Shown here in pieces: positions 12,267 to 57,162 of a stretch of DNA of 64,000 bases. Numbering within the stretch: position 1 is the first letter of the stretch; each line of letters starts with the position of its first letter. The position numbers and the translations under genes were made by a program. The stretch lies in the NCBI GenBank assembly GCA_019912665.1, contig JAIOIE010000021.1:135679-199678 (forward strand), written 5' to 3'. The notes below the pieces were generated by a model. The model made no database searches. It was given only the letters and a program-made list of their open reading frames with translations, and was not told where the DNA came from. The DNA comes from Deltaproteobacteria bacterium. Its GTDB lineage: Bacteria > Desulfobacterota > GWC2-55-46.

Positions 12267-12404
12267 GCAACTCTGAAAATTAGAGATTTTTCCCGCAATC
12301 AAGGAAGGCCGGGAATAAAAAGCGGAGCATATATTAATAATATATGAGCATTTTTATTCCCGTAACTACGCAGAGTCCGGGAAAAAGATCAATTTTTAAG
12401 GTCA
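12267..12404. repeat. MITE-like nested palindromic repeat, full copy 2
   Basis: A 59-nt stretch (AAAATTAGAGATTTTTCCCGCAATCAAGGAAGGCCGGGAATAAAAAGCGGAGCATATAT) is identical to copy 3 by my reading. The right end overlaps the ftsZ stop codon (12402-12404). Confidence 0.75.
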
Positions 12405-42743: not shown

Positions 42744-43532
42744 CTACTTCACAGCCCTCACCGCTACAGTATCGCCCACGCGGGCCCCAAGGGCCTCTGC
42801 GGCGTTTCCGCGATTGACCGCGACCTCGAGATACCCGGTGCTTCCGATGAGGGCCGTGGCGGCGCCCTTCTCGACCATGGCGTATGTCTTTTTGAGGCCG
42901 GTGAGCGCGGCATTCTTGACGGTCACCTCTACCGCCGTCCCATCCAGGGCTGAGAGGTCCTCGCGCCGGATGTTCGTTATGAGGTTTCCGAAAGAATCTA
43001 TATAGACGACCTCGCCTCTCAGGCCGCCCTTTTCGGGAACTGTCTTCGGGAGGTCAAGCGCCAGTATCTTATCGAGCGCCTGCCCCGTCTCCTCGGGCTT
43101 TGCGCCGAGGCTTAAGTGAGCCGCGACCGGGCCGAAAATATCCCTTCCATGGAAGGTGCTCATGACCTCGTCCCTGAAGAGCTCCCTATTTGTAAGCTCG
43201 ACTGCCCTTAAAATGCCGTCTTCGCGGACCGAGGGACTTAATAGACCGTTATCCGGGCCGATATAGAAAAACCTTCTGGTCTCGACCAGTATCGGTTTCC
43301 TGTCCCCCCCGACACCGGGGTCCACGACCGCCACATGGATCGTCTTTTCAGGGAAATAGCGGGAAGCGCCCAGGAGCACGAACGCTCCTTCGAGTATGTT
43401 TCCGGGCTGGACAAGGTGGGTTATGTCAACGATCCGGACCCCCGGGTTGATCGACAAGATGGCGCCTTTCATGGCGCCCTGGTAGGGGTCCTTCAGCCCG
43501 AAATCGGTCGTCAACGTGATTATCCGTTCCAT
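42744..43532 (-). CDS. SAM hydroxide adenosyltransferase / DUF62 (chlorinase-fluorinase family)
   Basis: The 262-aa ORF begins ITLTTDFGLKDPYQGAMKG and contains VVDPGVG and the N-terminal-domain motif FHGRDIF. Confidence 0.8.
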   Translation of the reverse strand: MERIITLTTDFGLKDPYQGAMKGAILSINPGVRIVDITHLVQPGNILEGAFVLLGASRYFPEKTIHVAVVDPGVGGDRKPILVETRRFFYIGPDNGLLSPSVREDGILRAVELTNRELFRDEVMSTFHGRDIFGPVAAHLSLGAKPEETGQALDKILALDLPKTVPEKGGLRGEVVYIDSFGNLITNIRREDLSALDGTAVEVTVKNAALTGLKKTYAMVEKGAATALIGSTGYLEVAVNRGNAAEALGARVGDTVAVRAVK

Positions 43533-43703
43533 TGCGGGAATAGTCTATTACACAGGGGCCGGTTTTTCAATCCCGCAGACGCGGGCTTCGCCATCCAATA
43601 TCCGGGTTAGAAAAGCATGAAAGGAGAGTGAACGTGACAGAAGGGCCGGGCAAGCAGCGGCTGAAGGGCAGGGTTACCCTCCAGCCCTTAAGTCTGTGCC
43701 GGC

Positions 43704-43994
43704 TCAGCCTCTGGGCGAGAATGTCTTGCAGTCCGCGTGCTCGCTGTGGTGGGAGACGTTTATGCCGGGGGCGGTACACTCGTAGGACTTGTTATAATTG
43801 CATTCGTAGGCCCTGCATGCCCCTACGCCGCCGACGATGTCCGCCCCGCCCTTTGTCGGGGCCCTGTAGAAGGTATCGCATGTGGCATGCCCGCCGTCGC
43901 CGACCGTGATAGCCATCGTGTGGCATTCGCTGTTTGTGTTGTACGCGCATTCAAGCACCGTACAGCTCATTATCTTCGGCATTGTAATGGCCAT
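43704..43994 (-). CDS. DUF1540 Cys-rich protein (two repeats)
   Basis: The motif C.V.EC.YN....C.A..I appears twice. The ATG at 43994 is preceded by AAAAGGGGGG. The ORF-track start at 44078 overlaps the predicted promoter. Confidence 0.7.
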   Translation of the reverse strand: MAITMPKIMSCTVLECAYNTNSECHTMAITVGDGGHATCDTFYRAPTKGGADIVGGVGACRAYECNYNKSYECTAPGINVSHHSEHADCKTFSPRG

Positions 43995-44050
43995 TTGTAC
44001 CCCCCTTTTTAATTCTTGGAATCCGGGCCGCCCTATCCCCTGTAAATCTG

Positions 44051-44079
44051 AGTATAACCCCGTTCCGGGCCGTGTCAAT
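44051..44079 (-). promoter_or_regulatory. Sigma70-like promoter of the DUF1540 gene
   Basis: On the minus strand, TTGACA (44079..44074) is followed by a 17-nt spacer and TATACT (44056..44051). Confidence 0.55.
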
Positions 44080-44130
44080 CCGCATTAAACCCTAAAGATT
44101 TCCTGCCCGTTTCCGATAAATCTGAGTGGA

Positions 44131-44272
44131 GGCAACCTCTAAAAATTAGAGATTTTTCCCGCAATCAAGGAAGGCCGGGAATAAAAAGCGGAGCATATAT
44201 GACAATATGTGAGCATTTTTATTACCGGCCTGACGCAGAGTCCGGGGAAAAGATCAATTTCTGGAGGTTGTC
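44131..44272. repeat. MITE-like nested palindromic repeat, full copy 3
   Basis: The terminal inverted repeats are GGCAACCTCTAAAAATT / AATTTCTGGAGGTTGTC (14 of 17 complementary). Inner inverted repeats are GATTTTTCCCG/CCGGGGAAAAGATC and CCGGGAATAAAAA/TTTTTATTACCGG. TGGA is found on both flanks. Confidence 0.75.
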
Positions 44273-44305
44273 TGGATAAAATCGCCCTCCGGACGGCTTA
44301 AATAT

Positions 44306-45553
44306 ATGATGAAAAAAATAAGACTTTCTGAGCTGGAAAAAGGCATGTATGTCTGCGGCGTCGAGAAGCGCGGCATGAGCCCGGTTTTCCTCGTGAATGA
44401 CATCCTCGTGCGCTCGGATGACGACCTGACGAGGATGTCCGCCAGGGGATACGCCCATGTATACATTTCACTGAATGAAAAGGAAGCGGCCCAGCACGCG
44501 GCAAATGACGGGGACGGGGCCGCAGGAGCGCCTTTTTACCCCGGAACAGAAACGCTCACGGCTGCAGATGAAGGGGCCCAAGGGGCAGAAAGCGGCAAAG
44601 ACAACCCGTCCGACCCGTATCGCGAGTTCAAGAAAGAGCTTGCGGAAGCCGAGGACATCCGGCATGACGCCGAGCAGGTGGTTAGGGACTTCCTCCAGAA
44701 CGCCAGGTCCGGGCAGAGTATAGACTCGGACAGGGTCCTCGAAACCGTCGGCCGCATGGTCGACTCGGTAATAAGGAACCAGGACGCGCTCACTAGCCTT
44801 GCAAGGCTCAAGAGCTTCGACGATTACACCTTCGCTCATTCCGTGAACGTGTGCATACTCTCGCTCGCGGTCGGCAGGCACCTCGGGCTCGAGAAAGACG
44901 ACCTCGACCAGCTCGGCCTGGGGGCCATACTCCACGACATAGGGAAGATGCTCGTGCCAGGAGACCTCCTTAACAAGCCCGGCCGCCTTAGCGAAGGCGA
45001 GTTCACGGTCATGAAAAAGCACACGGAGCTCGGCAAGGACGTGCTCGCAGGTATGAAATGCGTGAAGGAGCCCGCTTTGAGGGTGGTGCTCGAGCACCAC
45101 GAGCGCTTCGACGGGAGCGGCTACCACATGCGGCTTTCAGGAAGCGGCATACACCTCTACGCGCGCATAACTGGAATAGCCGACGTGTACGATGCGATGA
45201 CCAGCAACAGGGTCTACCAGAAAGGCATGCGCCCGGAGGACGCGCTCAAGAGGCTATACCATTCAAGAGGCTCCCTCTTCGACCCGGAACTTGTAGAGAG
45301 GCTCATAAAATGCCTGGGGGTCTACCCCATCGGGACCTGCGTAGAGCTCAATACAGGCGAGGCGGCCATCGTCAATATGATAAACCACTCGCACCCGCTT
45401 AAGCCCCGCGTGCTCCTTATAGCGGACAGGGAGGGCCTGCCTTTCCCCGTGCCCCTGGAAACCGACCTCAAGGAGGACGCCGGGAGGTGGATCGTCGGGT
45501 CTAAAAAGCCCGAGGAATTCGCCTTCCATATCCCTGCCCTCTGCGCCAACTGA
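44306..45553 (+). CDS. HD-GYP-family phosphodiesterase with N-terminal DUF3391-like domain
   Basis: The 415-aa ORF contains HDIGK and HHERFDGSGYH, so the GYP position reads GYH. Confidence 0.8.
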   Translation: MMKKIRLSELEKGMYVCGVEKRGMSPVFLVNDILVRSDDDLTRMSARGYAHVYISLNEKEAAQHAANDGDGAAGAPFYPGTETLTAADEGAQGAESGKDNPSDPYREFKKELAEAEDIRHDAEQVVRDFLQNARSGQSIDSDRVLETVGRMVDSVIRNQDALTSLARLKSFDDYTFAHSVNVCILSLAVGRHLGLEKDDLDQLGLGAILHDIGKMLVPGDLLNKPGRLSEGEFTVMKKHTELGKDVLAGMKCVKEPALRVVLEHHERFDGSGYHMRLSGSGIHLYARITGIADVYDAMTSNRVYQKGMRPEDALKRLYHSRGSLFDPELVERLIKCLGVYPIGTCVELNTGEAAIVNMINHSHPLKPRVLLIADREGLPFPVPLETDLKEDAGRWIVGSKKPEEFAFHIPALCAN

Positions 45554-45600
45554 CCGGGTGTGTGCTGAAAAACCGCCAGTTTTCAATCCATTCTTTAAAC

Positions 45601-45639
45601 GGAGGCAAAAGCGCTCGCGACCAAGCGCCTTTTGCCTCC
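45601..45639 (+). terminator. Hairpin downstream of the HD-GYP gene
   Basis: GGAGGCAAAAGCGCT-CGCGACCA-AGCGCCTTTTGCCTCC forms a stem of about 15 bp with one bulge. No clear T-tract follows. Confidence 0.45.
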
Positions 45640-45710
45640 TCTGCATGCCTGCCCGTCCGCCATTTATCAGTGACCGCTCCGCCGAAATATTGTATATTGT
45701 AGGCTAAGAA

Positions 45711-46199
45711 ATGGAGGAAGCCATGAATGAGCTGGTGAGGCTTGACCTGAGGGGCGCGCCGGTGCACGAGCGCCACCCGATGGTATTCGACGGATGGGAA
45801 GGGCTTGCGGCCGGCAAGGTCCTGCAGATAGTAAACGACTACGACCCGAGGGCGATCCGGTACATGCTCGAATCCGAATACGCCGGAAAGTTCGAATGGG
45901 AGTGCGTGTCCAGCGGCCCCGAATGGGTGGTGAACATAACGAAGACCAGGCTTCCCGAGGCGAGCGGCGAGGAACTCAGGAAAAAGGTCATCGCCGGGCT
46001 CGATAATGTGCGGCCGCATCTCCAGGCAGACGGCGGCGACGTCGAGCTTGTGGATATAGACGAGGCCGAAAAGGTCGTCAAGGTGCGCCTTACCGGGGCG
46101 TGCGGGGGCTGCCCCTCGGCGGCCATGACCCTCAAGTCAGGGGTCGAGGTGCAGGTGAGGAAGTTCGCCCCGGAGATACTGAGGGTCGAGCCGGTTTAA
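45711..46199 (+). CDS. DUF2249 domain fused to a NifU C-terminal-like domain
   Basis: The N-terminal part reads LDLRGAPVHERHPMVFDGWEGLAAGKVLQIVNDYDP (DUF2249-like). The C-terminal part reads VRPHLQADGGDVELVDI...GACGGCPSAAMTLK (NifU-like CxxC). The start may be the ATG at 45723. Confidence 0.7.
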   Translation: MEEAMNELVRLDLRGAPVHERHPMVFDGWEGLAAGKVLQIVNDYDPRAIRYMLESEYAGKFEWECVSSGPEWVVNITKTRLPEASGEELRKKVIAGLDNVRPHLQADGGDVELVDIDEAEKVVKVRLTGACGGCPSAAMTLKSGVEVQVRKFAPEILRVEPV

Positions 46200-46217
46200 C
46201 CGGCTGGCCTATGCTGT

Positions 46218-46240
46218 AAAAAAACGCGATTTCCTCGCGT
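46218..46240 (-). terminator. Rho-independent terminator of the radical SAM/mini-protein/YHS operon
   Basis: On the minus strand, ACGCGA-GGAAA-TCGCGT is followed by TTTTTTT, just after the YHS stop codon. Confidence 0.55.
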
Positions 46241-46245
46241 CTGAC

Positions 46246-46398
46246 TCACGCCGTCTTTTTTACGAAACGCTCGGGAGCGTGCTCGAACGCCTCCTTGCAG
46301 GCCTCGCTGCAGAAGTAGTACGTCTTCCCCTTGTACTCTGTCGTGGCCTCGGCGTTTTCTTCGCTAAGCTCCATCTTGCATACGGGGTCGGCAGGCAT
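46246..46398 (-). CDS. YHS/TRASH-type metal-binding mini-protein
   Basis: The sequence is MPADPVCKMELSEENAEATTEYKGKTYYFCSEACKEAFEHAPERF. The ATG at 46398 is preceded by AAGGAGG. The longer ORF-track N-terminus is unsupported. Confidence 0.75.
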   Translation of the reverse strand: MPADPVCKMELSEENAEATTEYKGKTYYFCSEACKEAFEHAPERFVKKTA

Positions 46399-46460
46399 GG
46401 CGCACCTCCTTATATGGTCACCCGTTGAGCCATTCGAAACGGCCGCGCTCAGTGGGCCGG

Positions 46461-46652
46461 TTATTCTGAATTCTTTGGAAGGCAGTCTTCCTTCCAGCAG
46501 CATTGAAGCTGGTCGCATAAATCCACGGCAGTCCCGAAGCACGGGAAGTTACCCTCCGTGACTTGTATCTCCCTTATGAGGTCCCTTTTCCCTTTCCTCG
46601 ATGTCTTAAGCCCGAGCTTCTTCGCCTTTTCCCTTACCTTTTCCATCTGCAT
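46461..46652 (-). CDS. 63-aa mini-protein: HeH (Rho_N/SAP-like) N-terminus plus C-terminal Cys cluster
   Basis: The sequence is MQMEKVREKAKKLGLKTSRKGKRDLIREIQVTEGNFPCFGTAVDLCDQLQCCWKEDCLPKNSE. AAGGAGGA lies upstream of the start. The 5' end overlaps the last 47 nt of the radical SAM gene. Confidence 0.7.
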   Translation of the reverse strand: MQMEKVREKAKKLGLKTSRKGKRDLIREIQVTEGNFPCFGTAVDLCDQLQCCWKEDCLPKNSE

Positions 46653-47874
46653 CCGCGGCTTTCCTCCTTCCGTCTTCTTCCCCTGAGAATCCCCTGTGTA
46701 TGTGCTTCAAGACCCATTCAAGCCCCCTCGAATAGGTGTTGTAGTAATGATAGACCTGGTAATTGCATGTCGAGAGGCACTTGGGGTTGCACTCCTTTTT
46801 CGTCTCGCGGAGCGCGGCCGGGTCGAATGCCGGCTCCCAGACCCTGCCCCAGTCTTTCTCCGTCGAGTAGAGCTCGAAGCAGGGGGCGAGCGTGCCGTCG
46901 AGCCTTATTACAAGCGAATTAAGCCCGGCCCTGCAGTCCCAGGGCCCGCCCTTGCCCCTCACGAACGACTTCATGGCCCGGAGGTGCTCGGCCGAGTTGA
47001 CCATTGGCCAGCCTTCGAGGTTCTTCTCAACGAGCCAGTCAATGAGCTCGTCGGTTTTCCTGAAGTGCTCCTCTGAAATCCAGAAGCCCTGTTCGAGATG
47101 CTTGTAGTGCTTCTGCTCGATGACGGGGTGCTCGTTCATGTGATAGTCGGTGCCGATGTCGTGCTCCCGGGCTATCCGGGTAAGCTCCTTTACGTCCTCG
47201 ATATTTTCCGAGGTGATATTTATGTTGAAGAAAATGATGTAGCCGTACTTCTCCCTGAGCCTCACGAGGTGCTTGAAATTAGTCTTTACCCTATCGAAGC
47301 TCTTCGGAAGCCCCGGCGCTTCCTTAATCTTATCTACCGCGAGGTTTACGGCCGCCACACCCGCATCCCCTGCCCTCTCGATAAAATCCCTGTCCATGAG
47401 GATGCCGTTCGTGGGGAGGTACATGAAGAAGTCCCGGTCGCTCCCGTATTTAATGACATCGAGTATGAACTTCTTCCGTAAGAGCGGCTCCCCTCCCATC
47501 AAGGCCACCACCCTGCAGCCCACGGTCCGGAGCCAGTCGATGGACTTTCTCGCGGTCTCCGGGGGCATGCCCTTCACCTTGTTATTCCAGGTGAAGCAGT
47601 ACCAGCAGTTTACGTTGCATTTCCAGTCTGTGAAGAGATAGGAAAGGAGCGGCCTGAACCTGTCCGAGTAATATCTCGACTTCAGATACGGTATGTACCA
47701 GCAGCGGAGACCCCTTACGAGGTTCTTAGCCGTGTTACGCGTCTTTTTTGAGAGAAGCCTCCCCGTTTTCCCGTCCTCAAGGCCAATTTCCGCACCCGCT
47801 CTGCCCGGCTTTGAAAGCATAGCTCCCTCCTCCGGAAAAAACGTGCTCTTCCCCGTTGCGGGGCCGCTCACCAT
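46606..47874 (-). CDS. Radical SAM enzyme with SPASM/twitch-like C-terminal Cys motifs
   Basis: It has the CX3CX2C motif CNVNCWYC. C-terminal motifs are CRAGLNSLVIRLDGTLAPC (CX12GX4C) and CNPKCLSTC. The likelier start is the ATG at 47820 (MLSKPG...), which follows GGAGGAGGGAG. Confidence 0.8.
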   Translation of the reverse strand: MVSGPATGKSTFFPEEGAMLSKPGRAGAEIGLEDGKTGRLLSKKTRNTAKNLVRGLRCWYIPYLKSRYYSDRFRPLLSYLFTDWKCNVNCWYCFTWNNKVKGMPPETARKSIDWLRTVGCRVVALMGGEPLLRKKFILDVIKYGSDRDFFMYLPTNGILMDRDFIERAGDAGVAAVNLAVDKIKEAPGLPKSFDRVKTNFKHLVRLREKYGYIIFFNINITSENIEDVKELTRIAREHDIGTDYHMNEHPVIEQKHYKHLEQGFWISEEHFRKTDELIDWLVEKNLEGWPMVNSAEHLRAMKSFVRGKGGPWDCRAGLNSLVIRLDGTLAPCFELYSTEKDWGRVWEPAFDPAALRETKKECNPKCLSTCNYQVYHYYNTYSRGLEWVLKHIHRGFSGEEDGRRKAADADGKGKGKGEEARA

Positions 47875-48019
47875 TATAAATTAGGACAGCTTTTGTCGTT
47901 TCAGTCAACTACCCGGTGGCCGAACCCGGAAAGGCACGTTATTGCTCTGCTTTTCTCGACCCGCTTCCAAAAACCCTCATTTAAATGGTATGCTGTTGCC
48001 CTCTACTGGAGGGTAAAAG

Positions 48020-49402
48020 ATGAAGCTTACTTTCGTCGGCGGAGCGAGCACCGTAACAGGCTCCTGCTACCATATCGAGGTCGGAAAATTCAAATTCCTC
48101 GTCGAGTGCGGCCTTCACCAGGGCATAGGCTCCGATGAACTAAACAGGCACCCCTTCCCCTTCGACCCGGCATCGCTCGATTTCATATTCGTAACGCACG
48201 CCCACATAGACCATTCCGGGATGCTCCCGAGGGCAGTGAGGGACGGCTTTAAAGGGACGATAATCTCGACGGCGGCGACAAGGGACCTCCTTGAGCCCAT
48301 GCTCTATGACGCGGCGAGCATTCAGGAGAGCGACAGCGAATGGGCGACGAGAAAGGCGCTCCGCTCAGGCAAGCCCCCGCAAGAGCCCCTTTACACGAGC
48401 GAGGACGTCGAGCGGGTACTCCCCCTTTTCGAGATAAAGGAATACGACAAGGTCTATCACCTCGGCCCGGGCGTGAAATACCGTTTCCTGGACGCCGGGC
48501 ACATATTGGGCTCGGCCTCGCTTGAGATATGGTATCAGGACAGCGCCGAAGAGAAAAAGATAGTCTTCTCAGGCGACATCGGCAAGAAGGGCAACCCCAT
48601 AATAAAAGACCCATCGGCGCCTGACCTCGCGAATTACGTGGTGATGGAGTCCACTTACGGCAACAGGTCGCACAAGCCCCTCAATGAATCCATAAACGAG
48701 CTCGTTAGCGCCATCAAGACGACATTCAGGAAGGGCGGGAACGTCTATATTCCCTCCTTCGCGGTCGGCAGGGCCCAGGACTTACTCTATATTCTCAATA
48801 ACCTGGTGCGTGAGGGCCGTCTTTACAGGATAGACGTCTACCTCGACAGTCCCCTTGCCGAGGCTGTTACCAAGATCTATGTAGCCCATCCCGAATGCTT
48901 TGACGAGGAGGCGCGCCATCTCTTCACCACCAAGCAGTCTGATTCGTCGATAAGGCTCCATTTCGTCCGGACGGCCGAGGAGTCGATGAAGCTAAACAGG
49001 CTCCGCTCCGGGAACATCATCATAGCCGGAAGCGGCATGTGCGAGGGCGGCAGGATAAAGCACCATCTCAAGCACAACCTCTGGCGCTCGGAGTGCAGCG
49101 TCATCTTCGTCGGCTACCAGGCAAAGGGCACTCTCGGAAGGAAGATCGTGGACGGCGCGAAGTCCGTGACCGTTTTGGGAGAGGAAGTGCTCGTCCGCGC
49201 CTCCATCCACACCATAAACGGCTTTTCCGCCCACGCGGGCAGGGAGGGCCTGCTTGATTGGCTCTCGGACTTCGACGACTCGCCGGAGATATTCATCGTG
49301 CACGGCGAGGACGAGGCCGGGGAATCGTTCGCGGGGCTTATAAAGGAGAAGTACGGGTTTGCTACCAGGAGACCGCAGAACGGGGAGACGGTGGAGATAT
49401 AG
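48020..49402 (+). CDS. MBL-fold beta-CASP family metallo-nuclease
   Basis: The 460-aa ORF contains the HAHIDHSG motif, DAGHILGSA, ESTYG and a C-terminal FSAHAG, as seen in CPSF73/RNase J-like enzymes. Confidence 0.8.
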   Translation: MKLTFVGGASTVTGSCYHIEVGKFKFLVECGLHQGIGSDELNRHPFPFDPASLDFIFVTHAHIDHSGMLPRAVRDGFKGTIISTAATRDLLEPMLYDAASIQESDSEWATRKALRSGKPPQEPLYTSEDVERVLPLFEIKEYDKVYHLGPGVKYRFLDAGHILGSASLEIWYQDSAEEKKIVFSGDIGKKGNPIIKDPSAPDLANYVVMESTYGNRSHKPLNESINELVSAIKTTFRKGGNVYIPSFAVGRAQDLLYILNNLVREGRLYRIDVYLDSPLAEAVTKIYVAHPECFDEEARHLFTTKQSDSSIRLHFVRTAEESMKLNRLRSGNIIIAGSGMCEGGRIKHHLKHNLWRSECSVIFVGYQAKGTLGRKIVDGAKSVTVLGEEVLVRASIHTINGFSAHAGREGLLDWLSDFDDSPEIFIVHGEDEAGESFAGLIKEKYGFATRRPQNGETVEI

Positions 49403-49409
49403 TTTTTTT

Positions 49410-49480
49410 GTAGGTGGGTTGAGCGAAGGGAAAACCCGACGATGTTCTTTGTAGGTTGGGTTAGCGCAGCGTAACCCAAC
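49410..49480 (+). repeat. Two REP hairpins upstream of the RAYT gene
   Basis: The first is GTAGGTGGGTTGAGCGAAGGGAAAACCCGAC (49410-49440). The second is GTAGGTTGGGTTAGCGCAGCGTAACCCAAC (49451-49480). Confidence 0.8.
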
Positions 49481-49491
49481 AAGAATACAAG

Positions 49492-50034
49492 ATGCAATAT
49501 CGGAGAACACAAACAAAAAGCGGCTCGTTCTTTTTTACCGTCGTGACTCATGAGAGGCAGCGGATATTATGCCTTGATGAAAACATCCTTCTTTTAAAGG
49601 ATGCATTCAGCCATGTCATGGCAAAGCACCCGTTCACCATCGACGCATTCGTTTGCCTTCCGGACCACATCCATTGCGTCTGGACCATGCCGGAAAACGA
49701 CGGGGATTTTTTCTACTCGCTGGCGTCTTATCAAGAGCCACTTCAGCGCACTGGTAGCGGGCAGACAATGAAGCAACCCGGACGGCTTCCCGCATAAAAA
49801 AGGCGAGCAGGGCATTTGGCAGCGGCGTTTCTGGGAACACAGCATACGGGACCAGAGTGATTTTAACCGGCATATCGAATATATCCATTACAATCCTGTC
49901 AGGCACGGGATTGTAAAGTCGCCCAGGGATTGGCCGTATACAAGCTTTCACGAATATGTAAATGACGGGACCTTAACCATCATTGGGGAGCAGGCGAAAA
50001 TATAGAATTCGACGACTATGTCGGGAATGAATGA
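49492..50034 (+). pseudogene. REP-associated tyrosine transposase (RAYT, IS200/IS605 Y1-like), disrupted
   Basis: Frame 1 gives ...PDHIHCVWTMPENDGDF. After a T-run at about 49711-49716 the homology continues in another frame (STRWRLIKSHFS...RQ*SN...KGEQGIWQRRFWEHSIRD...IHYNPVRHGIVKSPRDWPYTSFHEYV) with an in-frame TGA. The tail (HHWGAGENIEFDDYVGNE) is in a third frame. Confidence 0.8.
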
Positions 50035-50040
50035 TTGTTT

Positions 50041-50069
50041 TGGGTTACGCTTCGCTAACCCAACCTACG
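50041..50069 (-). repeat. REP hairpin in inverted orientation downstream of the RAYT
   Basis: TGGGTTACGCTTCGCTAACCCAACCTACG is the reverse complement of the upstream REP consensus. Confidence 0.8.
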
Positions 50070-50241
50070 AGACCATCATAAATCACAAAATATCCCCTGT
50101 AATTTAAAAAAGCTTGCGAAACTCAATAATTACACTCGACACACACCAGAGATGTATTGTTTTTAATTCGTTTAAATTAACGTTTGACAAAAAAAGTTTA
50201 AAATTATAGATTAAAACTTAATTAAATACTGGAGGGGCTAT

Positions 50242-51126
50242 GTGAAAAGATATTTCTTAATTGTTTGTGGGGTCTTTTTCTTGAATTGCAAAAATACAGC
50301 ATACGCTAATAATGCCCCTGAGCAAGCGACTTCTCCGACTGAAAGGACTCATCTTGAAGAAGTATTCACGCCATGCAAGAAAAAAAATGGTTCCGTTAAA
50401 GAAAATTGCAAAAAAACAGAAAAGCCTTATTATATTGATTTGATGATGGGGGTAGATTATGCATTAGAGGCTAAAGACGAGAATGGAAACAATACTCAAA
50501 ATAATTTTTCAGACGGTAAATTCAATATAGGGCTTACTGCGCATCAAAAATTTAATGCTTATGAAAGTGCAGATCTTTCCCTCTCATCATACCGTGGCTT
50601 TTTGACAGTGAAATTGGCTAGCGCTTCTGTTGAAATCCCAGAAAATGGAGATTCCCAGGTTTTGACTGAGCAAAGATCCTTAGGTATACAAGGAGGATTA
50701 TTTTGGGGATGTCGTTTAAATAAAGATAACCAGAGTTTAAATTTTCAAAGCTATGAAATAGGACCCATAATAAAATTCGGAGGACAAACTTCCGAAATTA
50801 AGGATCAATTAATTACAAGCGGATCTTTGCAGGTTAGGATTTTGCAGACAGGTAAATGGGTAAATGGGGCATATCTCGATGTAGGCTACGGTTTTAATGG
50901 AGCACTCGAGAACGAAGGCAGATGGAAACTAGATGCATTTTTGCCAATTGAAGGGTTACAGCTGAATGGTTCCTATCTAAATTTATTTTTAGCAACCAGC
51001 GTAGAAAGTGATTTGGGAAATAAAAAAGATTTAGTTACATTTAGCGTCGGAACGTTTATAGATTTTATAAGTCTGGGAAAAGCTCTAGGCAATATTTTCA
51101 GTGCAGCTGGAATAAATTTAAATTGA
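50242..51126 (+). CDS. Orphan secreted protein/lipoprotein in an AT-rich island, possibly an outer-membrane beta-barrel
   Basis: The 294-aa ORF has a GTG start after GGAGGGG and a signal peptide, MKRYFLIVCGVFFLNCKNTAYA. Alternating hydrophobic/polar strands are visible (YLDVGYGF, LVTFSVGTFIDF). Codon usage is AT-rich, unlike every other gene here. I recognise no family. Confidence 0.6.
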   Translation: MKRYFLIVCGVFFLNCKNTAYANNAPEQATSPTERTHLEEVFTPCKKKNGSVKENCKKTEKPYYIDLMMGVDYALEAKDENGNNTQNNFSDGKFNIGLTAHQKFNAYESADLSLSSYRGFLTVKLASASVEIPENGDSQVLTEQRSLGIQGGLFWGCRLNKDNQSLNFQSYEIGPIIKFGGQTSEIKDQLITSGSLQVRILQTGKWVNGAYLDVGYGFNGALENEGRWKLDAFLPIEGLQLNGSYLNLFLATSVESDLGNKKDLVTFSVGTFIDFISLGKALGNIFSAAGINLN

Positions 51127-51367
51127 GTTGTTGAAAATTAAGAGTAACGATATGTAATCATGCTGCGAGTGCTGCGCGACACTGTTCTCATTTAAGCCGC
51201 TTTCTTGCTCTCCCTCACCTCCCTCTTTTTGAGTTTAGTCTTGCGCTGTGCGCGCCATTCCCAATGTACAGCCGATTAAACCTCTTGACTCCCCTCTCCA
51301 CCCCCTTACACTCTAAGTAAAGCCCCTTGTATCCGAAAATTGATTTAATCCGGCTTTTTCTCGAATC

Positions 51368-52312
51368 ATGCAAAAGATAAAGCTCGGCATAAGCTCGTGC
51401 CTTCTGGGAGAAAAGGTGCGCTATGACGGCACGCACCAGAGGGACAGGTACATAACCGACACCCTCGGGAAATACTTCGATTGGCTGCCGGTCTGCCCGG
51501 AGGTGGAGTACGGCCTTCCGGTGCCGAGGGAGGCCATGCGCCTGAAGGCAGGCCCCGAGGGCCAGCGCCTCGTGACCCGAAAGAGCGGCATGGACCACAC
51601 TGAGGGCATGCGCGCATGGGTGAAGGAAAGGCTCGACGAGCTTGAGAAGGAGAATCTGTCGGGCTTCATCTTCAAGGCCAAATCTCCAAGCTCCGGCCTT
51701 TACGGAGTGAAGCTCTATGGCCCTTCGGGGCCGCCTTCGAAAAAGGGGGTTGGGCTTTTCGGAGGCGCGTTCGCCGAGCGCTTCCCCCTTGTGCCTGCCG
51801 AGGACGACGGCAGGCTCCACGACCCGGCCCTCCGCGAAAACTTCATAGAGCGCGTCTTCGTGTACCGGAGGTGGCAGGAGCTGATGCGAAAGCCGGGTGC
51901 AGCCCGCCTCGTGGACTTCCATACCCGGCACAAGCTCCTCATCCTCGCGCACAGCCCGAAGCATTATGCGCTCCTTGGAAAGATCACAGCCAGGGCCGGA
52001 AAATCCAGGGCAGAAAAGCTATACTATGAATACGCCGGAAGCCTCATGGAAGGGCTCCGCATAGTCGCCACGACCAGGAAAAACACCAACGTCCTTTACC
52101 ATATCATGGGGTATTTCAAGGAAAGGCTCTCAGCCCCTGAAAAGAAGGAGTTGCTTGAGGTCATTGGCAACTACCACAACGGGCTTATTCCCCTTATCGT
52201 GCCGATAGTGCTCGTTAACCACTATGTCCTCCTGTTCAAAGAGCCGTACCTCGGGAGGCAATATTACCTTAACCCGCACCCGATAGAGATGATGCTAAGA
52301 AACCACGTGTAG
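51368..52312 (+). CDS. ybgA: DUF523 + DUF1722 protein (YbgA-like)
   Basis: The 314-aa ORF starts LGISSCLLGEKVRYDG (DUF523). The C-terminal half matches the YbgA/DUF1722 pattern (HTRHKLLILAHS). It is upstream of a photolyase gene, as in E. coli ybgA-phr. Confidence 0.75.
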   Translation: MQKIKLGISSCLLGEKVRYDGTHQRDRYITDTLGKYFDWLPVCPEVEYGLPVPREAMRLKAGPEGQRLVTRKSGMDHTEGMRAWVKERLDELEKENLSGFIFKAKSPSSGLYGVKLYGPSGPPSKKGVGLFGGAFAERFPLVPAEDDGRLHDPALRENFIERVFVYRRWQELMRKPGAARLVDFHTRHKLLILAHSPKHYALLGKITARAGKSRAEKLYYEYAGSLMEGLRIVATTRKNTNVLYHIMGYFKERLSAPEKKELLEVIGNYHNGLIPLIVPIVLVNHYVLLFKEPYLGRQYYLNPHPIEMMLRNHV

Positions 52313-52318
52313 GAGCGC

Positions 52319-53659
52319 ATGTTCGAAGGAAGGTACGAGACCCTGAGGGAGGGAACTTCGCGGAAAGGCCCGGTCGCCTACTGGATGAGCCGCGACCAGA
52401 GAGCGCGTGACAACTGGGCGCTCCTCTTTGCCCAAGCGCTCGCAATCGAACGGAAGGCCCCGCTTATCGTGCTCTTCTCTCTAGCCCCGGCCTTTCTGGG
52501 GGCCGCGCTCAGGCAGTACGGGTTCATGCTCCGGGGGCTGAAGGAAGTCGAGGAAAGCCTTGCCGAGAAGTCCATCCCGTTTGTCCTCATAAAGGGCGAA
52601 CCGCCGGAAGCGGTGCCGAGCTTCATCAAGCGATATAAAATATCCGAGCTTGTTACCGACTTCGACCCCTTGAAGATAAAAAGGGGCTGGCAAGACGCCG
52701 TAGCCTCAAGGATAGACATACCCCTTCACATGGTAGACGCGCATAATATCGTGCCTTGCAGGATAGCCTCGTCAAAGCAGGAGTTCGCGGCGCGCACCTT
52801 CAGGCCCAGGATACAGGCAAGGCTCGGAGACTATCTCACCGATTTTCCCCGGTTAAGAAAGCACCAGCACCATATTGGGATCAAGGCCGGTTTCGACCTT
52901 GAAAAGACCATTTCCGGACTCGCCGTCGACAGCACGGTCAAAGAGGTGGACTGGCTGAAACCCGGAGAGACCGAAGCGGCTAAAGCGCTCGAAGACTTTA
53001 TGGAAAAGAAGCTCGACAGGTATGCCGAAGACAGGAACGACCCGACGAAGGACGGGCAATCAAACCTCTCGCCGTATCTCCACTTCGGGTATATAGCGGC
53101 ACAGCGCGTCGCGCTTCAAGTAATGCGAAAGGGCGCGGATGGTGAGGGCAAGAGGGCCTTCCTTGAAGAGCTTATCGTCAGGAAGGAGCTTTCGGACAAC
53201 TTCTGCCTTTATAACCGCGACTACGACAGCATAACGGGTTTTCCAGCCTGGGCAAAGAAGACATTGAATGCGCACGCGGGAGACAGGCGCGAGTTTATCT
53301 TCTCCCTCGACGAGCTTGAGAACGCACGCACCTACGACCCGCTCTGGAACGCCTCCCAGATGCAGATGGTGAAGACCGGGAAGATGCACGGCTACATGCG
53401 CATGTACTGGGCCAAGAAGATACTCGAATGGAGCGAATCGCCGGAGGCCGCGCTCAGGAATGCCATCTACTTGAACGACAAATACGAGCTCGACGGCAGG
53501 GACCCGAACGGGTATGCCGGGATTGCATGGGCCATAGGCGGGGTGCACGACCGCGCGTGGGCTGAAAGGAAAGTAACGGGGAAGATACGGTACATGAGCT
53601 ACAGGGGCAGCAGGTCGAAATTCGATGTTGACGCATATATCCGGAGGTGGGCCGGATGA
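52319..53659 (+). CDS. phr: Deoxyribodipyrimidine photolyase, class II-like
   Basis: The 446-aa ORF contains VAYWMSRDQRARDNWAL and a C-terminal FAD-binding region (HGYMRMYWAKKILEW, DGRDPNGYAGIAW). Confidence 0.85.
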   Translation: MFEGRYETLREGTSRKGPVAYWMSRDQRARDNWALLFAQALAIERKAPLIVLFSLAPAFLGAALRQYGFMLRGLKEVEESLAEKSIPFVLIKGEPPEAVPSFIKRYKISELVTDFDPLKIKRGWQDAVASRIDIPLHMVDAHNIVPCRIASSKQEFAARTFRPRIQARLGDYLTDFPRLRKHQHHIGIKAGFDLEKTISGLAVDSTVKEVDWLKPGETEAAKALEDFMEKKLDRYAEDRNDPTKDGQSNLSPYLHFGYIAAQRVALQVMRKGADGEGKRAFLEELIVRKELSDNFCLYNRDYDSITGFPAWAKKTLNAHAGDRREFIFSLDELENARTYDPLWNASQMQMVKTGKMHGYMRMYWAKKILEWSESPEAALRNAIYLNDKYELDGRDPNGYAGIAWAIGGVHDRAWAERKVTGKIRYMSYRGSRSKFDVDAYIRRWAG

Positions 53660-53745
53660 AGGCCGCCACTTGACTACCACCTCCTTTGCTCTAAACTCTA
53701 AATAAGGCCCCTTCCCGCCCTCCCTCTCCAATTGCGAGGTTTTTC

Positions 53746-54582
53746 ATGGCCCGTCCCATCTGGAAAGGCTCCATAAGCTTCGGCCTGGTAAATATCCCTG
53801 TCGGTCTCTTTACAGCCGAAGGCAAGGAGAAAAAGCTCGACTTCCACCTCCTCGATAAGAACGACCTCTCGCCCGTGGGCTACAAAAAAATAAACAAGCG
53901 GACCGGGAAGGAGGTCGGCACCGGCGAGATGGTGAAAGGCTACGAGTTCGAACGGGGGCAGTATGTCGTCCTCTCCGAAGAAGACTTGAAGCGCGCCAAC
54001 GCCAAGGCCACCCAGACTGTCGAGATAATCGACTTCGTGGACTCGAAAGACATACACCCCATATTCTTCGAGAAGCCCTATTTCCTCGCGCCCGTGGGCA
54101 GGGGCGAGAAGGGTTACGCGCTCCTACGTGAGGCGCTTAAAAAGACCGGAAAGGCCGGGGTAGCAAAAGTCGTCATACACTCGAAGGAATACATCGGGGC
54201 CGTGGTCCCCTACGGAAAGGTGCTCGTCCTTGACCTAATAAGATACGCCGACGAGCTCAAAAAACCGGAAACTGTCGAGGTGCCTGAAGAGGACCTTAAA
54301 AAACTCGGCGTGACGGAAAAAGAGCTTGAGATGGCGGAAAGGCTTGTCGAGTCCATGATATCCGACTGGCAGCCTGACAAATACCACGACACCTACAGGG
54401 ACGAGCTCCTCTCATACATAAAAAACAAGATCGCCGCAGGCGAGACTGCCAGGGTCGAGGAGGCAGCAGCCCCGCCGCCCCCGCCCGCCGCGGAGGTCAT
54501 CGACCTCATGTCGCTCCTTAAGAAAAGCGTCGAGGAGACCGAGGCCGCGAAGGTCAAGGCCCGGAAGGCCTCGGGCGGGTAG
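53746..54582 (+). CDS. ku: Non-homologous end joining protein Ku
   Basis: The 278-aa ORF begins MARPIWKGSISFGLVNIPV, the canonical bacterial Ku N-terminus. The C-terminal tail is basic. Confidence 0.93.
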   Translation: MARPIWKGSISFGLVNIPVGLFTAEGKEKKLDFHLLDKNDLSPVGYKKINKRTGKEVGTGEMVKGYEFERGQYVVLSEEDLKRANAKATQTVEIIDFVDSKDIHPIFFEKPYFLAPVGRGEKGYALLREALKKTGKAGVAKVVIHSKEYIGAVVPYGKVLVLDLIRYADELKKPETVEVPEEDLKKLGVTEKELEMAERLVESMISDWQPDKYHDTYRDELLSYIKNKIAAGETARVEEAAAPPPPPAAEVIDLMSLLKKSVEETEAAKVKARKASGG

Positions 54583-54591
54583 CCCCGGCAG

Positions 54592-57162
54592 ATGGGGAGC
54601 GAAGCGCGAAACGACGGCCTCGGCGAATACCGCCGGAAGCGCGATTTCAGCCGCACCCCCGAGCCCGAAGGCCAAGTCGCCGAAGGCCCGGCGGGCGTAT
54701 TCGTCATCCAGAAGCATTCCGCACGAGCCCTCCATTACGATTTCCGTCTCGAACTCCACGGCACACTTAAAAGCTGGGCTATCCCCAAAGGCCCTTCCCT
54801 CAATCCCGAAGACAAGCGACTTGCGGTGCATGTTGAAGACCACCCGCTTGAGTACGCCGGTTTCGAGGGAGTCATCCCGAGAGGAGAGTACGGCGGCGGG
54901 ACTGTAATCGTTTGGGACAGGGGCTTTTGGCTGCCCGAAGAAGACCCGAACAAGGGACTTCAAAAAGGAGCGATGAAATTCATCCTTTCCGGCAAAAAGC
55001 TCCGGGGCAGGTGGGCGCTCGTGAGGCTTAAACCACGCGCGGACCAGACGGAGGAAAAGGACGAATGGCTCCTTATCAAGGAAGCGGACGGAGAGGCCAA
55101 CGTCACGGGCGATATAACGGCTGAAAGGCCGGAGAGCGCCGTAAGCGGGAGGACTATCGAAGAGGTCGCGGCGCTTCCCGAGGGCATATGGGGCGGCAAG
55201 GAGAATGCAGCCAGGGTTCTACCGTCCGAAGCGCAATACCGGAAAAAGCCCATGCCCGGAATGATGCGGCCCGCGCTCGCCACCCTGGTCGATGCGCCGC
55301 CAGCCGGTGAAGGATGGCTCCACGAGCTCAAATACGACGGCTACAGGATACTCGCGAAGATACGGGAAGGCAGCGTCCGGCTCATCACCCGTAACGGGAA
55401 CGACTGGACGGATAAGTTCCCGTCCATAGCCGGGGCGCTCTCCCGGCTTCCATTTGATGGGGCATGGCTCGACGGCGAGGTCGTATCCATGGGCGAGGAC
55501 GGACGAACGAGCTTCGAAGGCCTCCAGCACGCGCTCGCCATGAAGAGCGACGAGGGACTCACATACATGCTCTTCGACGTACTCTATTACAACGGCTATT
55601 CCCTTGAAGCCGCGCCCCTTTATGAAAGGAAGCTCCTCGTGGAGTCTATACTCAAATCCGAGAGGGCCGACAAGAGGCTCCTCCGTTTCAGCGGCCATGT
55701 GGAGGGCAAGGGCCCTGAGTTCTTCGAGCACGCCTGCGCCTACAGGATAGAGGGAATAATCTCTAAAAAGAGGGACGCGCCCTATGTGGAAGGGCGGTCC
55801 ATGTCGTGGCTCAAGGTGAAGTGCCTCTTAAGGGACGAGTTCATCATAGGCGGATACACGGAGGCCGGAGACGGGAGGAGGACAGGTTTCGGCGCGCTCC
55901 TCATAGGCGCATACGCCCCTGATGGAAAGCTCATCTACTACGGAAGGGTCGGGACGGGCTTCAGCGAACGGTCCATATCCGAGGTCTGGGAGCGCCTTAA
56001 GCCGCTTGAGACGCCGGAGCCTCCGTTCCATCACCCGCCGTCAGGTGCAGAGGCAAAAGGCGTGCACTGGGTAAGGCCGGAACTCGTTGCGGAAGTGGAA
56101 TACAGGCAGCGGACTGCGGAAGGCGTATTGAGGCACGCATCTTTCCAGGGCCTCCGGGAGGACAAGCCCGCAAGCGAGGTGGTCTCCGCGGACCCGCTCC
56201 GGGCAAAAGAGGCCGTGGGGCCGACTGAAGAAACGCTCGCCCCGCCGCCATCCATCGAGCCGGGGCCTGCCAGGATAATAAGGAGCGTCCGCGTAACAAA
56301 CCCCGGCCGGGTCTTTTACCCGGAGGAAGGGTACACGAAAGCCGACCTCATAAACTACTATGAAGCGGCCGCTCCTCTTATGCTCCCGCATCTTGCAGGG
56401 AGGCCCCTTACGCTCGTTCGCTGCCCCGACGGCATCGGAAAGGAATGCTTCTTCCAGAAGCACTCGGTCAATACCATTCCTTCGGAACTGAAGCGGATCG
56501 CCCTTGCCGAGAACGACGGCACGCAAGCCGAGTACCTGATGGTGGATACGCCAGAAGGCCTCGTGGCGCTCGCCCAGATAGGCGTGCTTGAAATTCACAC
56601 ATGGAACAGCCGCCATGTGAAAGTCGAGTACCCGGACAGGCTCGTCTTCGACATAGACCCTGACGAGGGGGTCGGATGGGACCGGCTTGTTGAGGCCGTC
56701 TTCCTCATGCGGGCGCTCCTTGAGGAGCTTGGATTAAAGAGTTTTGTCAGGGCTACCGGGGGCAAGGGGCTCCATGTCGTGGTCCCGGTCCTTCCGGTAA
56801 GGGACTGGGATGAGATAAGGGATTTTACCAGGGCTGTTGCGGAGTTCGTGGCCCGTGGCCTTCCGGACAGATTCACCTCCATGATGACGAAATCCAGAAG
56901 GGCCGGGAGGATATTCATCGACTACATGAGAAACATAAGGGGCGCAACCGCCATAGAGGCCTATTCGACCAGGGCCAAGCCGGGCGCTACAATCGCCGCG
57001 CCCCTCGGCTGGGACGAGCTCATGCTCTACGGGCCGGGCTCCTTTACGCTTGCCAATATGAAAGAGCGCATAAGGGAAGCCGGGAACCCCTGGGAAGGAT
57101 ACATGAACGTTAAGCAGCCTGTGACGATCGAGATGGAAGAGAAGATAGGGCTCCGGCGCTAA
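54592..57162 (+). CDS. ligD: Multidomain ATP-dependent DNA ligase LigD (phosphoesterase-ligase-polymerase)
   Basis: The 856-aa ORF has a PE domain (FVIQKHSARALHYDFRLE), a ligase domain with the KYDGYR adenylation motif, and a C-terminal primase/polymerase domain (LVFDIDP...ATGGKGLHVVVP). Confidence 0.93.
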   Translation: MGSEARNDGLGEYRRKRDFSRTPEPEGQVAEGPAGVFVIQKHSARALHYDFRLELHGTLKSWAIPKGPSLNPEDKRLAVHVEDHPLEYAGFEGVIPRGEYGGGTVIVWDRGFWLPEEDPNKGLQKGAMKFILSGKKLRGRWALVRLKPRADQTEEKDEWLLIKEADGEANVTGDITAERPESAVSGRTIEEVAALPEGIWGGKENAARVLPSEAQYRKKPMPGMMRPALATLVDAPPAGEGWLHELKYDGYRILAKIREGSVRLITRNGNDWTDKFPSIAGALSRLPFDGAWLDGEVVSMGEDGRTSFEGLQHALAMKSDEGLTYMLFDVLYYNGYSLEAAPLYERKLLVESILKSERADKRLLRFSGHVEGKGPEFFEHACAYRIEGIISKKRDAPYVEGRSMSWLKVKCLLRDEFIIGGYTEAGDGRRTGFGALLIGAYAPDGKLIYYGRVGTGFSERSISEVWERLKPLETPEPPFHHPPSGAEAKGVHWVRPELVAEVEYRQRTAEGVLRHASFQGLREDKPASEVVSADPLRAKEAVGPTEETLAPPPSIEPGPARIIRSVRVTNPGRVFYPEEGYTKADLINYYEAAAPLMLPHLAGRPLTLVRCPDGIGKECFFQKHSVNTIPSELKRIALAENDGTQAEYLMVDTPEGLVALAQIGVLEIHTWNSRHVKVEYPDRLVFDIDPDEGVGWDRLVEAVFLMRALLEELGLKSFVRATGGKGLHVVVPVLPVRDWDEIRDFTRAVAEFVARGLPDRFTSMMTKSRRAGRIFIDYMRNIRGATAIEAYSTRAKPGATIAAPLGWDELMLYGPGSFTLANMKERIREAGNPWEGYMNVKQPVTIEMEEKIGLRR

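Follow-up and report, generated by a model that had tools for sequence, protein, structure and literature searches.

A probably acquired single-gene islet encoding a predicted outer-membrane beta-barrel in a variable intergenic slot of an uncultured Desulfobacterota genome

Introduction

How does a single gene of strongly deviating composition come to lie between conserved genes of a bacterial chromosome, and what does it encode? This question is raised by an AT-rich islet (positions 50070-51160) within a stretch of 64,000 nucleotides, referred to below as the window, from contig JAIOIE010000021.1 (positions 135,679 to 199,678) of a Deltaproteobacteria bacterium of the phylum Desulfobacterota. 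The islet carries one open reading frame (ORF) for a protein of 294 amino acids (aa), and it adjoins an element composed of inverted repetitive extragenic palindromes (REPs) and a gene for a REP-associated tyrosine transposase (RAYT). A sequence-only reading of the window had proposed that the ORF encodes an orphan secreted, beta-barrel-like protein, acquired from a low-GC donor at a REP/RAYT hotspot.

The analysis presented here leads us to conclude, with a probability of about 0.7, that this is a horizontally acquired, unameliorated single-gene islet encoding a predicted 10-stranded outer-membrane barrel, placed in a slot between a beta-CASP/RMMBL metallo-beta-lactamase gene (bCASP) and ybgA. 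The genome dynamics are of a known kind, as is the structural class of the protein, whose sequence family is new.

Composition and integrity of the islet

G and C account for 377 of the 1091 nucleotides of the islet (0.346). In a 300-bp profile the GC content is 0.31-0.38 across approximately 50000-51200 and 0.55-0.64 in the flanks. A scan with 1-kb windows revealed no other dip in the whole 64 kb (minimum 0.359; all windows outside the dip at least 0.519). The description of the islet as a sharply AT-rich island with one gene was confirmed by these data, and the three 60-nt counts on which it was based proved exact (9/60 at 50161-50220, 17/60 at 50401-50460 and 43/60 at 51481-51540). The islet gene itself has a GC content of 0.362, and of 0.286 at third codon positions (GC3), compared with 0.587 +/- 0.019 and 0.752 +/- 0.052, respectively, for the 39 other long ORFs of the window. 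These deviations (z = -11.6 for GC and z = -9.0 for GC3) are of the kind that marks an acquired islet.

An identical 294-aa protein is encoded on contigs of SRR15661995, SRR15661999, SRR31740698, ERR13669121, ERR13669122, ERR13669125 and ERZ24842206. The eight islet-spanning contigs (L001-L004, L091-L093 and L101), which originate from the ENA assembly ERZ24842206 and six Logan sequencing runs, include both borders together with 2-20 kb of surrounding DNA and are 100% identical to the window. In ERZ24842206 the islet lies on a 367-kb contig named Desulfobacterota_UBA5799, with approximately 77x coverage. The switch in composition is abrupt and occurs beside a repeat that was shown to break assemblies, which might suggest that low-GC DNA was joined artificially into a high-GC contig. 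Since both borders are reproduced without a single difference in independent assemblies, and the right junction is unique sequence, such a chimera, against which the sequence-only reading had cautioned, is effectively refuted. All of these copies represent one clone, so they offer no population variation to exploit.

A variable slot between bCASP and ybgA

The islet is preceded by a radical-SAM gene (rSAM), bCASP (48020-49402) and the REP-RAYT-REP element, and is followed by ybgA (2-thiouracil desulfurase/DUF1722), a photolyase gene (phr) and the genes for Ku and LigD. Relatives of this locus were found by scanning 185,579 species-representative genomes with YbgA, and the closest of them are uncultured “Deltaproteobacteria”/Desulfobacterota metagenome-assembled genomes (MAGs). 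Among 84 loci searched by tblastn, the islet protein was found only in the four copies of the window contig itself and was absent from the other 80, which are YbgA-anchored loci.

A sister species (L006 and L097-L099) shows the same gene order, with aa identities of 96.7% for bCASP, 93.7% for rSAM and 95% for Ku, and its flanking DNA is approximately 86-90% identical to that of the window at the nucleotide level (approximately 88% overall). In blastn comparisons, identity of about 90% extends to 49387, shortly ahead of the bCASP stop codon (49400-49402), and identity of about 86% restarts at 51281, 4 bp before the -35 hexamer of the ybgA promoter-like site. In this slot the sister species carries a different AT-rich cargo of 1.69 kb (GC 0.30-0.41; positions 4224-5911 of L006, L097 and L098, and 1483-3170 of L099), 99.9% identical across the four assemblies, with two ORFs (219 and 230 aa) unrelated to the islet gene. 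The 219-aa ORF matches no family and is apparently interrupted in L006; the 230-aa protein has a transmembrane segment at its N-terminus and a region with weak resemblance to receiver domains (Response_reg, E = 2.7e-5, below the cut-off; phrog_5982, E = 3e-6). Neither REP nor RAYT was found in this cargo, and no similarity between it and the islet was detectable at the DNA or protein level. The gene is thus absent from close relatives with conserved flanks, one of which holds other DNA in its place, as is characteristic of islets.

The remaining relatives present further variants upstream of ybgA. The gene for an ABC-transporter ATPase ends 173 bp before ybgA in L005, with neither a GC dip nor an island, and L008 has yet another context; the synteny of both differs there from that of the window. 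The L096 contig breaks 59 bp upstream of ybgA, and other contigs with an identical bCASP protein end in the REP or, in one case (L103), jump through it to a locus with an aspS-like (aspartyl-tRNA-synthetase-like) gene. No relative with an empty site was recovered among L005, L008, L096 and the contigs with identical bCASP. The DNA beside the islet displays no gradient of divergence that would mark a recombination tract (approximately 77-93% identity per 300-bp window, excluding the intergenic gap upstream of bCASP). Direct repeats of at least 8 bp are absent from the islet borders, as are a second copy of the islet from the window and a tRNA gene or an Rfam family from its vicinity (no Rfam match at the gathering threshold in 43000-53000). 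We conclude that the hotspot is the spacer extending from the bCASP stop codon to the ybgA promoter, a hypervariable slot, and not the REP.

Two observations concern the right side of this slot. The 120 bp that separate the islet from the point at which homology resumes (51161-51280) have a normal GC content (0.517) and no detectable feature, are absent from the sister species, and could be left over from a previous occupant of the slot. The downstream genes ybgA, phr, ku and ligD (51368-57162) are co-directional, related to DNA repair, and conserved in the sister species and in L005/L096; YbgA and the photolyase are approximately 85% identical to their counterparts in the sister species, and bCASP and Ku 95-97%.

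The islet gene and its product

The open frame of the islet comprises 303 codons; in 2,000 shuffled versions of the islet sequence none exceeded 190, and the probability of finding no stop in 294 codons at this composition is approximately 4e-11. Because the frame far exceeds those of the shuffled sequences, and because all of the family-invariant residues are kept (see below), we consider the ORF a real gene. The 294-aa ORF with a GTG start, a promoter-like site and a ribosome-binding site of its own, as put forward in the sequence-only reading, is indeed present. The candidate promoter begins with TTGACA at 50184, followed after 17 nt by TAGATT at 50207.

The N-terminus (MKR, an 11-residue hydrophobic core, and NN immediately after AYA) reads as a Sec-type signal peptide. 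Of the two processing sites that had been considered, cleavage by signal peptidase I between AYA and NN is the better reading, since the alternative lipobox FLNC is non-canonical and the homologs have similar N-terminal hydrophobic segments ending in AXA-like sites, with no lipobox Cys. A lipoprotein was rejected on the basis of the pattern [LVI][ASTVI][GAS]C at the end of the signal peptide: FLNC has Asn at -1, LIVC (Cys9) lies inside the hydrophobic core, and the homologs have no conserved Cys at this site.

The structure of the protein was predicted with AlphaFold2 (AF2). From the single sequence the pLDDT reached 33, whereas with an alignment of 12 sequences it was 82.1 (pTM 0.79; five models, 80.7-82.1). 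The model consists of ten long antiparallel strands followed by a C-terminal helix, in agreement with the 10-12 beta-strand-like segments noted originally, and corresponds to a predicted closed antiparallel barrel with an even number of strands. The strands are 9-20 residues long, and the domain has approximately 22 residues for each strand overall. OpcA and OmpT share these proportions, and these two outer-membrane barrels are also the best structural matches. Almost all of the Foldseek matches are outer-membrane proteins (OMPs), and the aligned stretches are longer for membrane barrels (163-170 residues) than for soluble ones (137-143).

The family alignment revealed an alternation of faces in all ten predicted strands. 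One face is hydrophobic (rich in L/V/F/I; mean Kyte-Doolittle value 1.57; 5.8% charged residues) and variable; the other is polar (-0.75; 29% charged), Gly-rich and conserved, and carries the invariant residues. This dyad repeat favours a membrane barrel over a soluble one, provided that the conserved face is the inward one, because the combination of a polar, conserved lumen and a hydrophobic, variable exterior is the pattern of outer-membrane proteins. The last predicted strand, SVGTFIDF, which includes the invariant G270, fits the consensus of the beta-signal of the BAM complex (polar-x-G-x-x-hydrophobic-x-aromatic). The host is taken to be a diderm, since the genome is a Desulfobacterota-type MAG and the contig encodes, approximately 7 kb further downstream, a Wzi-type outer-membrane capsule protein (PF14052). 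Confidence in the predicted fold is good; we infer the membrane location and, likewise, the molecular function of the barrel.

A rare protein family and the origin of the gene

Neither Pfam nor NCBIfam contains a family to which the 294-aa protein could be matched, even at E-values up to 1 or 10. A word-indexed search of 5.8 billion proteins returned only the protein itself, to which a family profile added nothing new, and this profile gave no hits among PDB sequences at E <= 10. An exhaustive HMMER search of 1.84 billion representatives yielded 13 distant relatives (E-values of 1e-28 to 1e-4), which match residues 57-287, approximately, with 24-38% identity in the family alignment. The absence of a recognizable family, claimed from the sequence, therefore holds for Pfam and NCBIfam, but the protein is not a strict orphan. 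The family comprises 14 clusters at 50% identity among these representatives. It is extremely rare, since each of the ten relatives that were looked up forms a singleton cluster, on one or two contigs.

The relatives share a C-terminal domain of approximately 220 aa, without a Pfam match in the homologs, behind variable N-terminal modules (according to a Pfam scan IPT/TIG, FN3 or ComEA-like HhH of the HHH_3 type; otherwise coiled coil). The domain is characterized by the motifs GGQTSE, NGAYLDxGYG, KxEGFLP and DxVTFxVG, and by the invariant residues R199, G204, N208, G215, G217, K229, P235, F249 and G270, all of which are kept in the islet protein.

Four homolog loci were usable for an analysis of genetic context (among them P0007 from JGI 3300056388, for which no DNA was available, L094 and L095), a number too small for statistics. 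One member is flanked by an RHS/YD-shell protein and a patatin-AbfB protein, and caspase-like peptidases are encoded close by; another belongs to a gene string that also encodes an SLT/PG-binding protein, two alpha/beta-hydrolases and a patatin; a third precedes a 617-aa protein with a GHSLG hydrolase motif, and the fourth a MoxR-type AAA+ ATPase. No neighbour common to these loci was identified by sequence (blastp), and the islet gene itself has no lipid-hydrolase partner. In a sample of this size, the recurrence of lipid-hydrolase neighbours is only suggestive of a functional link between the family and lipid hydrolases or toxins. IMG/VR, INPHARED and PLSDB yielded no relatives, PADLOC returned nothing, and the only PHROG match was to a 19-residue stretch of the signal peptide; no link of the gene with phages, plasmids or defence was therefore found. 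Scans of JGI metagenomes produced no family members. They gave one degenerate-DNA match (L088), which was rejected as an unrelated ATPase.

DNA of six family members could be examined. Four of them, all on unclassified metagenomic contigs, reside in low-GC contexts (gene GC 0.34-0.38; flanks 0.33-0.39). The amino acid composition of the islet protein (FYMINK/GARP fractions of 0.32/0.21) resembles that of these low-GC homologs and differs from the host proteome means (0.24/0.31). No close homolog that might represent the donor was present among the 1.84 billion representatives. Horizontal acquisition from a low-GC donor, as postulated in the sequence-only reading, is well supported by GC and GC3, by the amino acid composition and by the four homologs in low-GC contexts. 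Judging from these sequences, the gene probably resided for a long time in a low-GC lineage and was transferred recently.

The neighbouring REP/RAYT element

The DNA between bCASP and the islet contains an inverted pair of REPs around a RAYT pseudogene, and a further degenerate REP (Table 1). Two copies of the REP core motif are present in the window, compared with 0.05 expected. GTAG, with which the REP arms start, is the tag of the REP super-family that is associated with RAYTs (PMC3733652). The inverted REP noted in the sequence-only reading at the left border of the islet (50041-50069) was found, with coordinates that are off by one (50040-50068).

The reading frame of the RAYT gene is destroyed by a frameshift at a T6 run (49707-49712) and an in-frame TGA (49769-49771), although the HUH (HIH) motif and YIHYNPV, which contains the catalytic Tyr, are still legible; the first 101 aa give a weak match to Y1_Tnp (E = 0.008, below the cut-off). 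These lesions are identical in all of the assemblies and thus do not result from sequencing errors. In other sequencing runs contigs stop at 49480 or begin at 49453. Since they do so at the REP, and since L103 joins through the REP to another locus, the left REP is a dispersed repeat.

In L103 (positions 1874-2239; run SRR31740696) bCASP and the left REP (window positions 49450-49482) are followed by the 3' end of the aspS-like gene instead of RAYT, and this contig contains a second GTAG-tagged palindrome, GTAGGGTGCGCTATGCGCACC. Either the assembler took a path through a dispersed REP, or another strain has undergone a real rearrangement mediated by the REP.

The REP-RAYT-REP element is located inside the segment that differs from the sister species (49388-51280). 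It is one of the variable occupants of the slot and not the cause of its variability.

Feature coordinates and other observations

Table 1. Features of the islet and its surroundings (window coordinates)
Feature	Position	Strand	Basis or remarks
Variable segment	49388..51280	.	no homology to sister species; blastn vs L006/L097-L099
Degenerate extra REP copy	49404..49436	+	tandem pair with next REP; 76% identical to 49445-49477
Left REP arm	49451..49479	+	GTAG-tagged, GTAGGTTGGGTTAGCGCAGCGTAACCCAA; inverted pair, 29 nt, 97% complementary
RAYT pseudogene	49492..50005	+	three-frame translation
Right REP arm	50040..50068	-	inverted pair with 49451-49479; AT-rich DNA begins 1 bp later
AT-rich islet	50070..51160	+	GC 0.346
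Candidate sigma-70-like promoter	50184..50212	+	TTGACA-17 nt-TAGATT; consensus match 10/12, best in region
Shine-Dalgarno-like sequence	50231..50237	+	GGAGGGG, 4 nt 5' of GTG; sequence
ORF, 294 aa	50242..51126	+	GTG start, TGA stop; predicted secreted 10-stranded outer-membrane beta-barrel, undescribed family
Predicted signal peptide, residues 1-22	50242..50307	+	MKR, YFLIVCGVFFL, NCKNTAYA, cleavage before NN; sequence reading
N-terminal linker, residues 23-62	50308..50427	+	Cys45 and Cys56; corresponds in position to IPT/TIG, FN3 or HhH modules of homologs; alignment
Predicted barrel domain, residues 63-274	50428..51063	+	ten beta-strands; AF2
Predicted C-terminal amphipathic helix, residues 275-288	51064..51105	+	domain positions 221-234; AF2
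Spacer, 120 bp	51161..51280	.	GC 0.517, without homology to sister species; comparison and composition
ybgA promoter-like site	51285..51312	+	TTGACT-16 nt-TACACT; right edge of slot; conserved in sister species

An intergenic repeat of approximately 130 bp occurs twice in the window (12267-12395 and 44132-44260, 91% identical) and has an internal AT-rich hairpin (GGGAATAAAAAGCGGAGCATATAT...ATATGAGCATTTTTATTCCC). Its position is conserved in the sister species (L006 2706-2797, L097 2668-2800), and it is also present in a third relative (L096 5937-5994).

A protein identical to YbgA of the window (51368-52309), P0015, is labelled “Candidatus Methylomirabilis sp.” in an NCBI MAG, whereas the ENA contig bears the name Desulfobacterota_UBA5799. 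A conflict in binning or labelling is the probable reason, and the label hints that the organism lives in Methylomirabilis-type enrichment cultures.

Discussion

The following course of events and mode of action would account for our observations. The donor was most likely a low-GC diderm bacterium, and the simplest guess for the route of insertion is replacement of the spacer by recombination through conserved flanks. The islet now occupies the hypervariable slot between the bCASP stop codon and the promoter of ybgA-phr-ku-ligD in an uncultured, UBA5799-type member of the Desulfobacterota, to which its gene brings its own putative sigma-70-like promoter and Shine-Dalgarno sequence. The 294-aa pre-protein would be exported by the Sec system and cleaved by signal peptidase I after AYA22, as its sequence suggests, and residues 63-274 would then insert into the outer membrane as a 10-stranded beta-barrel. 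Its lipid-facing surface would be hydrophobic and variable, and its lumen conserved, polar and Gly-rich (R199, D213, R227, K229, G215, G217 and G270). The last strand, with its resemblance to the beta-signal, may be recognized by the BAM complex. The barrel may serve as an outer-membrane anchor or a surface module, which in the distant relatives carries N-terminal IPT/TIG, FN3 or ComEA-like HhH domains. The islet protein is a barrel-only member: all that it has in place of such a module is a 40-residue linker with two cysteines. Candidate activities of the barrel include those of an adhesin or receptor, a narrow channel, and a lipid-related role.

Several findings weigh against this interpretation. 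Mobility signatures (an integrase, a tRNA target, direct repeats) were not found at the islet, where only the RAYT pseudogene is present, and “insertion” is indistinguishable from “replacement” because no relative with an empty site was recovered. Two of the six homologs lie in high-GC contigs (0.65 and 0.74), with a protein composition to match, and the inference of a low-GC donor consequently depends on the composition of the islet together with the four low-GC-context homologs. Regarding the protein, the AF2 alignment is shallow (12 sequences), and both the inward orientation of the conserved face and the closure between strands 1 and 10 are presumed. A helical tail of approximately 20 residues follows SVGTFIDF, so that the beta-signal-like motif is not terminal, unlike that of classical OMPs, and the loops display no clear asymmetry of long extracellular and short periplasmic ones. 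Finally, the islet promoter is a candidate derived from a consensus match alone, and expression is predicted.

The alternatives differ in which part of the interpretation they replace. The product might be a soluble secreted or periplasmic 10-stranded ligand-binding barrel, similar to nitrobindin or the lipocalins. This is unlikely, since a conserved polar face opposite a variable hydrophobic one is the reverse of what a conserved hydrophobic core would produce, and the length of the strands, the longer alignments with membrane barrels and the predominance of OMPs among the Foldseek matches all argue in the same direction. The gene might also be an old resident, whose low GC content has been kept by selection or local mutation bias (e.g. 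as in a surface antigen) and which the relatives have lost or replaced. The AT-richness of the same site in the sister species, which indicates that the slot itself might favour low GC, as well as the lack of mobility genes or repeats, would fit such a history. We nevertheless regard it as improbable: the two cargos have no detectable similarity, the GC3 of the gene (0.29 vs 0.75) is too extreme for a local bias and matches that of the low-GC homologs, the amino acid composition is of the low-GC type, and the family is extremely sparse and phylogenetically scattered.

A still slightly smaller probability is assigned to capture or delivery of the islet by the adjacent REP/RAYT system. The AT-rich DNA begins 1 bp past the right REP arm, the element falls within the segment divergent from the sister species, and the REPs, being dispersed, are sufficiently recombinogenic to interrupt assemblies or join them wrongly. 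On the other hand, the same slot of the sister species holds a different AT-rich cargo with neither REP nor RAYT, the RAYT of the window is inactivated by a frameshift and a nonsense codon, and the right border of the islet has no REP and no flanking direct repeats are present. Moreover, the role proposed for RAYTs is the mobilization of REPs, not of cargo genes (PMC5581495, PMC3733652), and they are typically single-copy, domesticated and vertically inherited (PMC5581495, PMC3733652). A causal role of the REP/RAYT element is therefore not supported, and the notion of acquisition at a REP/RAYT hotspot had to be abandoned in favour of acquisition in the bCASP-ybgA slot.

Two more far-reaching ideas, which we advance jointly and only tentatively, concern the family and the slot. 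The family would constitute an undescribed group of barrels that anchor modules of the periplasm or the cell surface (ComEA-like HhH, IPT/TIG, FN3). In three of the four informative contexts its neighbours include patatin, alpha/beta-hydrolases, RHS or caspase-like peptidases, a tendency that hints at involvement in a conflict or secretion system directed at lipids or the envelope. The slot would be a cassette-exchange hotspot, at which sister species swap unrelated promoter-bearing AT-rich cargos without a recognizable recombinase, repeat or tRNA target; if true, this would be a route of insertion or replacement not yet characterized in the phylum.

The locus has no bearing on a long-standing open question, and the islet is otherwise fairly ordinary. 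It does provide a clean, well-controlled case in which an uncultured Desulfobacterota lineage gained a gene recently: the same flanking synteny, one intergenic slot, two sister species and two unrelated low-GC cargos. The very rare family, which lacks a Pfam or NCBIfam model as well as a relative in the PDB, is a candidate for a new Pfam domain, and the protein is a small, tractable target for studies of how new outer-membrane proteins are recruited.

Comparison with known systems

The element beside the islet resembles known REP/RAYT systems (PMC2817692, PMC3733652, PMC5581495) in that inverted GTAG-tagged palindromes flank a transposase-like gene of the Y1/HUH type and in that REPs occur at scattered sites of the genome. 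It differs in that the RAYT is inactivated and in that the element adjoins the islet and is not demonstrably its vehicle.

Among barrels of known structure, OpcA, a 10-stranded outer-membrane adhesin of Neisseria meningitidis (2vdf, 1k24), matches the islet protein structurally, with 7-9% sequence identity. Its long extracellular loops, which form the ligand-binding site, have no counterpart in the islet protein, and the C-terminal helix, GGQTSE and NGAYLDxGYG are found in the new family only. The omptins (OmpT/Pla; 7xw0, 4dcb) are 10-stranded proteases; the islet protein does not match the Pfam omptin family (PF01278) and is approximately 50 residues shorter. No sign of the catalytic Asp/Asp and Asp/His pairs of omptins was obtained, although no residue-by-residue comparison was made. 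The beta-domains of type Va autotransporters (BrkA 3qq2, AIDA-I 4mee, Hbp 3aeh) have 12 strands and a helix that threads the pore, whereas the islet protein has ten predicted strands, a helix after the barrel, no passenger domain and no match to PF03797.

Strain-specific low-GC “ORFan” islets have been described in enterobacterial and other genomes. The locus analysed here differs from single-gene islets at intergenic hotspots in having no tRNA gene, integrase, IS element or direct repeats, and in its host, an uncultured Desulfobacterota lineage, for which we found no such hotspots described in the literature. What it shares with them is a gene of foreign composition, with its own candidate promoter, lying between core genes at a site where relatives carry alternative content.

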